46,221 nt of DNA, taken from a virus. The notes under the pieces are model-generated. The model worked only from the letters and a program-made list of their open reading frames with translations. It did not search any database and had not been told where the DNA came from. The position numbers and the translations under genes are program-made. Shown here in pieces: positions 6,145 through 20,792 of this stretch. The number at the start of each line of letters is the position of its first letter. The stretch's first letter is position 1. The stretch is from the UHGV virus genome UHGV-0126501, one strand, 5' to 3'.

Positions 6145-6195
6145 ATTTTTAGTTTAATAAACATTAAACTTAAGTCAAGTAAAAACTAAACCGTG
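6145..6195. promoter_or_regulatory. Left operator/promoter region (OL/pL-like): inverted copy of the right operator motifs; candidate leftward promoter -35 TTGACT (6178..6173) and -10 TAAACT (6156..6151)
   Basis: TTAAGTCAAGT here is the reverse complement of ACTTGACTTAA at 7163-7173, and GTTTAATAAAC mirrors GTTTATTAAAC at 7176-7186; AAACTAAACCG recurs as ACACTAAACCG at 7204-7214. Confidence 0.5.
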
Positions 6196-6261
6196 GGCGT
6201 AACAAACACAACGCTTTTGATAAAGTCGTTGCGGTTGTTATGTTTCTATTGGTAGTGAAAG

Positions 6262-6540
6262 TTAGGGAAACTGGCGTCTTGCGTGGATCACGTTTACTAC
6301 TTCAACGCTTGATGTTGTTACGCGGTATAGAATTATATAGTTAGGGTGGGCTACAATCTCACGCAAGCCAGGTACTCTGTCGCTTGGTGGGTATAAATAC
6401 GGATGTTCGGATAACGGCAGCACACAACCCCTTAATCGCTGCCATAAGCGTTCAGCCGCATCTATGTCGAAACGAGCAATATAACTAGTTATATCATCTA
6501 GGTCGGTATCTGCGTTTTCAAGCCATAACACGGGTAACAT
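6262..6540 (-). CDS. Type II toxin, RelE/ParE superfamily
   Basis: About 92 aa from Met at 6540; C-terminal ...IVAHPNYIILYRVTTSSVEVVNVIHARRQFP matches the RelE/ParE C-terminal pattern; start overlaps the upstream antitoxin stop. Confidence 0.7.
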   Translation of the reverse strand: MLPVLWLENADTDLDDITSYIARFDIDAAERLWQRLRGCVLPLSEHPYLYPPSDRVPGLREIVAHPNYIILYRVTTSSVEVVNVIHARRQFP

Positions 6541-6541
6541 T

Positions 6542-6733
6542 TTACTGCTTGCTCCGTTCCTTGCGCATTTTAGCAAAGCGTTCTGCCATTCTGCGCTCAA
6601 CTTCGTCATGGGGAATTGCTGGGCGCGGATCTGCAAGGCTCGTTGCTACTTTCGCACGCAGCCATTCGTTGTAACTGTTTTCTTGTTCAATGGTTTCAAA
6701 TTCAGAAACCATTGGTGAAAGGGCTCTATTCAT
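6542..6733 (-). CDS. Cognate antitoxin (ParD/RelB-like small protein)
   Basis: 63-aa ORF with strong SD (GGAGG) before the ATG at 6733; immediately upstream of and overlapping the toxin. Confidence 0.6.
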   Translation of the reverse strand: MNRALSPMVSEFETIEQENSYNEWLRAKVATSLADPRPAIPHDEVERRMAERFAKMRKERSKQ

Positions 6734-6753: not shown

Positions 6754-7125
6754 TCAGGCGCGGCGGCATTTTTGCGCCGCAATCCATCTCGCTATGAGAT
6801 CTTCCATTGATTCTTTTTTCTGCTTTAACTCGCTGATTATCTGGCGTTGCTCATCCTCAGGGAAGGCTGAAAAAATCTGCAATAATTCCAGTTGATTAGA
6901 CGTTAACCCTGCATGTGGTGGAGAAACTTCCGGTTGTTCTGCGTATTCCGCATCCAGATACCCTTCCGGCATCCCGTATGTTTGCTCTATTCTTCTGGCA
7001 GCCTTTTCTCCAAACGAGGCTCTCCCACTCATTAGTTGAGATAGGTAGCTCTTCTCTTTGGGTGGCAGAGTTTTATCTTTAAACCACTCCTTGAGACGTA
7101 AACGGCGAATTTCTTTTTTTTGCAT
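6754..7125 (-). CDS. CI-like prophage repressor (HTH, no S24 peptidase domain; RacR-like)
   Basis: Divergent from the cro-like gene across an operator-rich spacer; HTH-like N-terminal segment (LSQLMSGRASFGEKAARRIEQTYGMPEGYL); ATG at 7125 sits just after a candidate -10, suggesting a leaderless mRNA. Confidence 0.65.
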   Translation of the reverse strand: MQKKEIRRLRLKEWFKDKTLPPKEKSYLSQLMSGRASFGEKAARRIEQTYGMPEGYLDAEYAEQPEVSPPHAGLTSNQLELLQIFSAFPEDEQRQIISELKQKKESMEDLIARWIAAQKCRRA

Positions 7126-7222
7126 GTGGTAATTATCTTTAGTAATCACTAAACAAGCAAATACTTGACTTAATGGTTTATTAAACACTAAACTCGCAAA
7201 AAAACACTAAACCGAGGAAGGT
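7126..7222. promoter_or_regulatory. Right operator/promoter region (OR): candidate pR -35 TTGACT (7165-7170) and -10 TAAACT (7189-7194); candidate leftward pRM-like -35 TTGCTT (7160..7155) and -10 GATAAT (7137..7132)
   Basis: Repeated CACTAAAC motifs; canonical hexamers with 17-18 bp spacers on both strands; mirrored copy at 6150-6195. Confidence 0.5.
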
Positions 7223-7525
7223 ATGACATTAAAAGAGTTTATTAAATCATTGAGGGTTGGTGATGCTAAGAAATTCGCGGCCAGACTTGGCGTATCGCCA
7301 TCTTACTTATCGCAAATGGCGTCTGGACGAGCAGCTATATCTCCAACCCGCGCCCTTATGATCGAATCTGCGACGGAAGGCCAAGTAAGTAGGGCGGAGC
7401 TACGACCCCATGATTGGGAACTTATTTGGCCTGAGTATGCGAGCGGCATTCGTTTGGGGCAAACACATGTAGTTCATGCTGAAGGTGATTGTAGTGCATG
7501 CTTATCTGATGGAGTTGATTCATGA
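7223..7525 (+). CDS. Cro/CI-family HTH regulator (Cro-like, YdaS-type)
   Basis: 100-aa ORF divergent from the repressor; SD GAGGAAGG; HTH segment AKKFAARLGVSPSYLSQMASGRAAIS. Confidence 0.75.
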   Translation: MTLKEFIKSLRVGDAKKFAARLGVSPSYLSQMASGRAAISPTRALMIESATEGQVSRAELRPHDWELIWPEYASGIRLGQTHVVHAEGDCSACLSDGVDS

Positions 7526-7947
7526 AAATCAAGCATGAACACATCCGCATGGCGATGAATGCCTGGGCGCATCCGGACGGCGAGAAAGTACCGGCTGCGA
7601 AAATTACCAAAGCGTATTTCGAACTGGGTATGACGTTCCCGGAATTGTACGACGACAGCCATCCGGAAGCCCTGGGCCGTAACACCCAGAAAATTTTCCG
7701 CTGGGTGGAGAAAGACACTCCTGATGCGGTTAAAAAAATTCAGGCGTTGTTACCAGCGATCGAAAAAGCGATGCCGCCTCCGCTGGTGGCCCGAATGCGC
7801 AGCCACAGTTCCGCTTATTTTCGGGAGTTGGTAGAGACGAAGGAACGGCTGGTGAAAGATATTGATGATTTCGTTGCATCAGCGATCGTTCTGTTCGATC
7901 AGATGAATCGTGGTGGCCCGGCAGGAAACACTCTGGCTGTGCATTAA
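7522..7947 (+). CDS. YdaT-like / CII-like regulatory protein
   Basis: 141-aa ORF overlapping the cro-like stop (ATGA); position equivalent to cII / Rac ydaT. Confidence 0.55.
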   Translation: MKIKHEHIRMAMNAWAHPDGEKVPAAKITKAYFELGMTFPELYDDSHPEALGRNTQKIFRWVEKDTPDAVKKIQALLPAIEKAMPPPLVARMRSHSSAYFRELVETKERLVKDIDDFVASAIVLFDQMNRGGPAGNTLAVH

Positions 7948-12450: not shown

Positions 12451-12730
12451 AAGGAAACAAAACAGAAACAACAATTGCCGTTATCTGTTGTTACCATGGC
12501 AAGTAAACGTATCTCAGGCGAGCGCATTGCGCCGTTCTGACGCAGATAAACTAGCCTGGATAGATGGTGCTGGCAATAAAAAATAGCGTTTTCTTATCGG
12601 TGTCGGTAAGATTGCTGCGGGTGCTTGAGGCTGTCTGCCTCGGGCATGCCACTGTAAGGCAGACAGAGAAAAGCCCCAGTTAACATTACGCGTCTTGCAG
12701 GACGCTTAACATTAATCTGAGGCCCAATCT

Positions 12731-12943
12731 ATGCCATACAAACATAGGTTAGCCTCTTACGTGCCGAAAGGCAAGGAGAAGCAGGCTATGAAGCAGCAAA
12801 AGGCGATGTTAATCGCCCTGATCGTCATCTGTTTAACCGTCATAGTGACGGCACTGGTAACGAGGAAAGATCTCTGCGAGGTACGAATCCGAACCGGCCA
12901 GACGGAGGTTGCTGTTTTCGTGGACTACGAATCTGAGAAGTAA
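12731..12943 (+). CDS. Mok-like in-frame N-terminal extension of Hok (modulator of killing)
   Basis: Upstream in-frame ATG gives a 70-aa product, analogous to chromosomal MokC/HokC where Mok is an N-terminally extended Hok. Confidence 0.45.
   Translation: MPYKHRLASYVPKGKEKQAMKQQKAMLIALIVICLTVIVTALVTRKDLCEVRIRTGQTEVAVFVDYESEK
12788..12943 (+). CDS. hok: Hok/Gef-family type I toxin (small membrane peptide)
   Basis: MKQQKAMLIALIVICLTVIVTALVTRKDLCEVRIRTGQTEVAVF... matches the Hok/Gef signature (TM helix, LTRKxLCE, periplasmic tail); SD AAGGAGAAG. Confidence 0.9.
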   Translation: MKQQKAMLIALIVICLTVIVTALVTRKDLCEVRIRTGQTEVAVFVDYESEK

Positions 12944-20715: not shown

Positions 20716-20792
20716 GCGGGTATCGTATAATGGCTATTACCTCAGCTTTCCAGGCTGATGATGTGGGTTCGATTCCCGTCACCCGCTCTCCA
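20716..20792 (+). tRNA. tRNA-Gly(UCC)-like element, probably degenerate
   Basis: Cloverleaf can be drawn: acceptor GCGGGTA, D-arm with GG, anticodon stem TCAGC/GCTGA with loop TTTCCAG (anticodon TCC), T-loop GGTTCGATTCC. But A7-C66 mismatch, two G-U pairs in the T-stem, and a TCTCCA 3' end instead of CCA. Confidence 0.45.

Follow-up and report, generated by a model that had tools for sequence, protein, structure and literature searches.

The closest described system to the immunity region presented here is the PaaR2-YdaS switch of the cryptic prophage CP-933P of Escherichia coli O157:H7 EDL933, studied by Jurenas et al. in 2021 (mBio, PMC8630535); prophage Sp12 of strain Sakai is identical to CP-933P (PMC8630535). 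The transcription starts determined by 5′ RACE fit both predicted promoters, and the start of PRM933P coincides with the paaR2 start codon. The N-terminus of PaaR2, determined by Edman sequencing, is MQKKE, the intact mass fits a 123-aa protein plus the tag, and PaaR2-His expressed with its ATG at the araB +1 is the same protein as that made from the native promoter (PMC8630535). DNase I footprints of PaaR2 (~78 bp) and YdaS (65 bp) each overlap both promoters, and the operators comprise four ~18-bp inverted repeats with the half-site consensus GTTTAGTAA and three pseudosymmetric operators (PMC8630535). With gfp fusions, PaaR2 and YdaS each repress both PRM and PR, as well as PL933P, whose −35 and −10 hexamers are the ones found in PR. 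Of the two divergent promoters, PRM is the weaker; a low level of PaaR2 boosts it while repressing PR, and single cells show the locus to be bistable (PMC8630535). A further promoter, PRE, lies between ydaS and ydaT and is silent unless YdaT switches it on. PaaR2 carries no autocleavage domain, the prophage does not respond to mitomycin C, and OL-OR looping was raised as a possibility (PMC8630535). The YdaT recognition sequence is TTGATTN6AATCAA (PMC9986795).

Here we compare with this system a locus in UHGV virus genome UHGV-0126501, of which one stretch of 46,221 nucleotides was analyzed (the window). The 97-bp intergenic region at 7126-7222, with its PRM, PR, and GTTTAGTAA-type repeats, is 100% identical in the window, O157:H7 Sakai Sp12 (97/97 bases), and O157:H7 PA20; the Sakai copy sits between ECs_2278 (“Cro”) and ECs_2279 (“CI”). 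Each EDL933 primer from Jurenas et al. lying inside 7126-7222 matches the window with zero mismatches. Perfect matches were found for 22 of the 27 EDL933 oligonucleotides tested, another differs at one synonymous position in ydaS, and an additional primer pair matches perfectly within paaR2. Primers R-YdaT, F-CP933P, and R-CP933P, which lie outside the shared block, have no match in the window; this is consistent with mosaic flanks and is no argument against the identity of the switch. We read 7126-7222 as the right operator region (OR) of a CP-933P/Sp12-type lambdoid immunity switch in which paaR2 would be expressed from PRM as a leaderless mRNA, and on the sequence identity and motif layout this reading is very probably correct. 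The original prediction, which had described a leaderless repressor mRNA, is thus supported by the 97-bp identity to an experimentally studied sequence (PMC8630535). Its three proposed checks have all been made already, since Jurenas et al. worked on the identical sequence: 5′ end mapping put the PRM start at the paaR2 ATG, operator footprinting showed PaaR2 and YdaS covering both promoters, and reporter fusions were made for PRM, PR, PL, and PRE (PMC8630535). Transcription starts, N-terminus, footprints, reporter responses, and bistability are accordingly taken from the literature (PMC8630535); the present analysis supplies the sequence identity, the motif geometry, the absence of a Shine-Dalgarno sequence, and the conservation across the repressor family.

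Homology to Sp12 around the switch spans only ~5985 to ~7947, at 96% identity. The mosaic edges of the immunity cassette fall inside a DUF1391 gene on the left (~5985) and, on the right, where ydaT ends (~7947). CP-933P/Sp12 has different replication genes and different genes downstream of PL. The window is a mosaic lambdoid element with an exonuclease VIII gene in the leftward early region, replication and Q genes to the right, and lambda-like tail genes in its second half, and it seems to be a more complete prophage than cryptic CP-933P. Escherichia phage Evi (LR597642.1) carries the same immunity region (98.3% identity over 1.6 kb), with 96 of the 97 intergenic bases matching and one residue of PaaR2 changed. 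CP-933P-type immunity is found in apparently complete lambdoid phages (the window and Evi) and not just in a cryptic prophage; the immunity region is present in 590 of 5,426 complete E. coli genomes at a coverage of at least 80%. Two RNA genes were also noted in the element. An Rfam match to the sok antitoxin RNA at 12619-12793 on the plus strand (117 bits; gathering score, 59) suggests a type I toxin-antitoxin locus of the hok/sok kind, and in Sp12 a MokC/HokC gene occupies a comparable position. A tRNA-Gly gene (anticodon TCC) lies inside the phage-like element at 20716-20788 on the plus strand.

The 97-bp gap divides a leftward 123-aa open reading frame (ORF) from a rightward 100-aa ORF. 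The leftward ORF is paaR2 (6754-7125, minus strand). Its 123-aa product matches no Pfam family, including the S24 peptidase domain PF00717, and was therefore named from a PDB sequence search and its neighboring genes: over residues 1-65 it is identical to PDB 7NKV, an entry titled “Phage repressor protein CI.” PaaR2 acts like CI in the circuit but is not a member of the LexA/CI-type S24 autocleavable family. It matches O157:H7 PaaR2 at 121 of 123 residues, the two changes (E66G and V67G) being confined to the linker. As a hint of SOS-controlled antirepression of this noncleavable repressor, a perfect LexA box (CTGTN8ACAG) was sought, and none was found anywhere in the window. On the 3′ side of paaR2, and predicted to be cotranscribed with it, lie the antitoxin gene paaA2 (6542-6733, minus strand) and the toxin gene parE2 (6262-6540, minus strand; limits taken from the RefSeq annotation). 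PaaA2 (63 aa; Pfam PaaA2 [PF21217], E = 1.7e-19) has its own GGAGG Shine-Dalgarno sequence and is identical to the O157:H7 protein (63/63), and ParE2 (92 aa; Pfam ParE_toxin, E = 1.1e-15) matches at 91 of 92 residues, with one substitution.

The rightward ORF is ydaS (7223-7525, plus strand), encoding a Cro-like 100-aa protein with matches to Pfam YdaS_toxin and HTH_3 and 99 of 100 residues identical to the O157:H7 protein. The sole substitution, A37T (codon 37 at 7331-7333), lies within or next to the predicted helix-turn-helix (HTH_3 residues 16-50); the operators are nevertheless identical. It is followed by ydaT (7522-7947, plus strand), encoding a CII-like 141-aa protein (Pfam YdaT_toxin) that departs from its O157:H7 counterpart by 20 substitutions, most of which fall in the C-terminal half. 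The window thus holds the divergent ydaS-ydaT operon together with the YdaT site and a PL whose hexamers are those of PR.

The OR region contains PRM, PR, and operators. A promoter scan with coordinates located PR at 7165-7194 on the plus strand, with TTGACT at 7165-7170, an 18-bp spacer, and TAAACT at 7189-7194, as had been predicted for the promoter ahead of the cro-like gene; its +1 is expected at about 7201. The Shine-Dalgarno sequence of ydaS, GAGGAAGG, occupies 7214-7221 on the plus strand, immediately before the ydaS ATG at 7223. PRM occupies 7132-7160 on the minus strand, with a −35 of TTGCTT at 7160-7155, a 17-bp spacer, and a −10 of GATAAT at 7137-7132. Six nucleotides (TACCAC) then separate the −10 from the paaR2 ATG at 7125, a placement that puts the predicted +1 on the A of that codon, and the original description of these minus-strand hexamers, with a start at or near the ATG, agrees with what was found. 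Within the PRM spacer, the palindrome CTTTAGTAATCACTAAAC was read at 7137-7154; we take it to be IR1 of PMC8630535, the exact limits being our own reading, and the form conserved across the repressor family is GTTTAg..atTACTAA. Sequence reading and half-site matches place a candidate IR3-like operator, GTTTATTAAACACTAAAC, at 7176-7193 over the PR −10, and a candidate IR4-like operator, CGCAAAAAAACACTAAAC, at 7195-7212, where the right half only was recognized. With the half-site ACACTAAAC and at most one mismatch, 8 matches were found window-wide against 7.3 expected, so there is no enrichment at that scale. The densest 100-bp cluster of half-sites in the window starts at 7137 and holds 6 sites, against a mean of 3.3 and a maximum of 6 in shuffled sequences; for the half-sites, local clustering alone is informative.

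Absence of a Shine-Dalgarno sequence before ATG 7125 had been part of the original prediction, and the anti-Shine-Dalgarno duplex calculation bears it out: none was found in the preceding 20 nt, whose best duplex reaches −0.9 kcal/mol; the corresponding value for ydaS is −8.6 kcal/mol. Folding prediction for the paaR2 mRNA leaves its first 35 nt unpaired. A generic sigma-70 promoter scan of the region returned 5 sites against 2.9 expected, which is not significant, and did not list PRM, whose −35 matches the consensus at only 3 of 6 positions. Because this weak −35 made the scan miss PRM, it was replaced by an ATG-anchored test requiring a −10 with at least 5 of 6 matching positions at a gap of 5-7 nt and a TTGnnn −35 at a spacing of 16-18 bp. 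By this test, ATG 7125 is the only one of the 1,624 ATGs on both strands of the window with such a promoter immediately upstream.

The poor −35 of PRM, with its 3 of 6 positions, weighs against the leaderless switch. Together with the unremarkable count of the generic scan and the existence of the YdaT-activated PRE, it would suit an account in which the PRM hexamers are chance matches in AT-rich intergenic DNA and the repressor is expressed solely from a distant promoter (PRE), as an internal cistron lacking a Shine-Dalgarno sequence. We consider this account highly improbable: the 5′ RACE start lies at the ATG and the PRM-gfp fusion is active and regulated (PMC8630535), the layout at ATG 7125 has no second instance in the window, and at least 31 distant loci keep the −35, −10, and 6-nt gap despite diverged synonymous sites.

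A second point on which the leaderless reading could be challenged is the precise +1. Transcription might begin 1 to 4 nt before the A of the ATG, giving a very short leader and an mRNA that is not strictly leaderless, as start choice at 6 to 9 nt after a −10 is flexible and the exact RACE nucleotides are given in a figure only (PMC8630535). The text of that paper, however, says that the PRM transcription start “matches the predicted translation start,” and the araB +1 construct yields the same protein (PMC8630535). In addition, with the 6-nt gap kept throughout the family, the canonical +1 falls on a purine, namely the A of the ATG. We regard a short leader as very unlikely. Leaders of 1 to 4 nt behave as leaderless in any case.

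The start codon itself could also be questioned, and the original prediction had named the upstream GTG at 7188 as the start that would overturn it. Translation from this in-frame GTG would give a 144-aa repressor from a leadered mRNA transcribed from a promoter further to the right. The ORF is open from there, and automatic gene callers often pick extended starts (144-aa and 150-aa versions, in clusters of 231 and 153 sequences, respectively). The MQKKE N-terminus and the intact mass fit the 123-aa protein plus the tag, though, and so had already refuted the GTG start for the identical sequence (PMC8630535); the additional residues would have to be encoded within the operator and promoter DNA, and the RefSeq annotation is 123 aa. 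Nor is an N-terminal extension conserved: 22 of 27 aligned homologues begin at the same Met and 2 more at an internal Met, Met1 is nearly invariant in a 28-sequence alignment, and the few longer versions (130-150 aa) extend into operator DNA. The GTG start was rejected, and we attach almost no probability to it. For the window, the correct annotation of paaR2 is a 123-aa gene starting at 7125 and having no ribosome-binding site.

The left operator region, PL with its OL operators, is at 6145-6192 and is transcribed leftward (minus strand). By promoter scan and coordinates, PL has TTGACT at 6178-6173, a 16-bp spacer, and TAAACT at 6156-6151, both hexamers being those of PR. ACTAAAC-type half-sites surround it at 6147-6185, and the palindrome AGTTTAATAAACATTAAACT lies at 6151-6170; an inverted recurrence of the OR motifs, originally placed at 6150-6195, is therefore present. 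The EDL933 PL primers map to 6145-6166 and 6241-6261 with zero mismatches, and the PL/OL core sequence is that of O157:H7. The PRE region, on the minus strand, is given the limits of the cloned fragment (7431-7550), to which the PRE primers map without mismatch. The YdaT site TTGATTcatgaaAATCAA at 7515-7532 spans the ydaS stop and the ydaT start and is the one occurrence of the motif TTGATTN6AATCAA in the window.

Conservation of this layout was examined among relatives of PaaR2. A protein search returned 156 relatives, some of which share the N-terminal DNA-binding domain only, and upstream regions were compared at 63 loci from one-genome-per-species contigs plus three phage records. The arrangement GTCAAGtaTTTGCTTGTTTAg..atTACTAATCAaAaT-N6-ATG is shared upstream of the repressor start by 31 distant loci, which are mutually related, so that such counts are not independent events. 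The shared cassette consists, in order, of the complement of the PR −35, the PRM −35, IR1 in the spacer, a −10 of (C/G)A(A/T)AAT, N6, and the ATG; the N6 varies in sequence among the 31 loci but never in length. Hosts include Yersinia, Proteus, Erwinia, Klebsiella, Citrobacter, Brenneria, Morganella, Caballeronia-related Burkholderiales, Pandoraea, Mycoavidus, Glomeribacter, Nitrosomonas, Dechloromonas, and Undibacterium, and the cassette also occurs in Burkholderia phage vB_E177 and Klebsiella phage 5 LV-2017. Averaged over pairs of the 31 loci, identity is 0.68 at positions −45 to −1, against 0.35 at third codon positions, and the protein-level identity over codons 6-55 is 0.50. A further 7 Burkholderiales loci have TAAACT-N6-ATG, and three loci have a −10-to-ATG gap of 5 or 7 nt. 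No Shine-Dalgarno sequence at a usable distance was found at any locus with the conserved cassette, the TAAACT-N6-ATG form, or the 5- or 7-nt gap.

Two groups of relatives depart from the layout. Members from Pasteurellaceae (L044, L047, L051-L054, L058, and L059) have ordinary GGAG-type Shine-Dalgarno sequences, and a Photorhabdus/Xenorhabdus group (L003, L004, L006-L011, L017, and L018) has TATAAAtaaaATG with a 4-nt gap and no Shine-Dalgarno sequence.

Because at least 31 relatives keep the promoter, the operator, the 6-nt gap, and the ATG, the leaderless design appears to be family-wide. A fixed distance from −10 to ATG with free sequence between them is what would be expected of a promoter obliged to start on the A of the AUG, and it therefore provides independent comparative support for the leaderless reading. 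The PaaR2 N-terminal domain (up to 85% identity) is also found fused to an S24 peptidase (PF00717) in repressors of ~210 aa, which likewise have this cassette upstream; a single operator-recognition module thus serves two induction strategies. The cassette is kept nearly base for base before PaaR2-like domains in Enterobacterales, Burkholderiales, Nitrosomonas, and Tepidimonas. We judge it probable that the leaderless promoter-operator cassette is an ancient module that moves horizontally and not a feature peculiar to CP-933P. If so, dozens of unstudied repressors are predicted to be leaderless, which would also account for repressor genes that are often extended, truncated, or missed in annotation. 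Gene finders that depend on Shine-Dalgarno sequences miscall this repressor family. The 150-aa (P0001) and 144-aa (P0002) gene calls, which represent the clusters of 153 and 231 sequences, are over-extended. In Burkholderia phage vB_E177 (L067 1201-1863), the annotation covers the C-terminal part of the repressor only, and in Klebsiella phage 5 LV-2017 (L068 1201-1560), the repressor gene is unannotated.

Taken together, the weak leftward PRM would initiate on the A of the paaR2 ATG at 7125, and because of this start the paaR2-paaA2-parE2 mRNA would have neither a leader nor a Shine-Dalgarno sequence. PaaR2 would be made by initiation at the 5′-terminal AUG, as for lambda cI. Initiation by 70S ribosomes is established for lambda cI, and we infer that it may apply to the paaR2 mRNA as well. 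From the stronger rightward PR, ydaS and ydaT would be transcribed into an mRNA that has a ~22-nt leader and an ordinary Shine-Dalgarno sequence. PaaR2, CI-like without a peptidase domain, and the Cro-like YdaS would be rivals for the overlapping ACTAAAC-type repeats over both promoters and would also contest the similar repeats at PL/OL (6145-6192), a competition that would yield a bistable switch. At low levels, PaaR2 would stimulate PRM and repress PR and PL. The CII-like YdaT, acting at 7515-7532, would turn on PRE as a second route to paaR2 expression; the PRE transcripts would carry paaR2 behind a long leader, still without a Shine-Dalgarno sequence. Octameric PaaR2 may also loop OL to OR over the ~1 kb between the two operator regions (6145-6192 and 7137-7212).

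The leaderless paaR2 switch is already known and was characterized experimentally on the identical sequence in 2021 (PMC8630535); conservation of its layout across the family is a modest extension beyond that work, showing the layout kept over a wide host range and in two repressor architectures. The window shares its gene order (parE2-paaA2-paaR2/ydaS-ydaT), YdaT site, and PRE fragment with CP-933P/Sp12, whereas the flanks differ and the C-terminal half of YdaT has diverged. Like the OR of lambda, the region has divergent back-to-back promoters, shared operators, and two competing repressors; a weak maintenance promoter is stimulated by the repressor, the repressor mRNA starts at the AUG, a second operator set lies at PL, and PRE is activated by a CII analogue (PMC8630535). 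The CP-933P operators are ~18-bp repeats ~19-20 bp apart, with four inverted repeats compared to three sites in lambda (PMC8630535). The lambda repressors have no detectable sequence relationship to those of this switch, and PaaR2, unlike lambda CI, has no S24 peptidase domain and is not SOS cleavable. The toxin-antitoxin pair occupies the position of lambda rexAB, and the OL-OR distance is ~1 kb in the window compared to 2.4 kb in lambda. The Rac (RacR/YdaS/YdaT) and Qin (DicA/DicC) prophages of E. coli K-12 likewise have a repressor gene divergent from ydaS-like and ydaT-like genes, rightward genes of the same Pfam families, and a DUF1391 (YdfA-like) gene in the leftward operon, but the YdaS and YdaT of CP-933P share just 26% and 31% identity with their Rac counterparts (PMC8630535). 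Neither RacR nor DicA is a homologue of PaaR2, and their operators differ. Leaderless repressor genes, with a transcript beginning at or next to the start codon, are reportedly also present in the telomere phages PY54 and N15 (PMC4488713), whose proteins and operators are unrelated to those of the PaaR2 switch.
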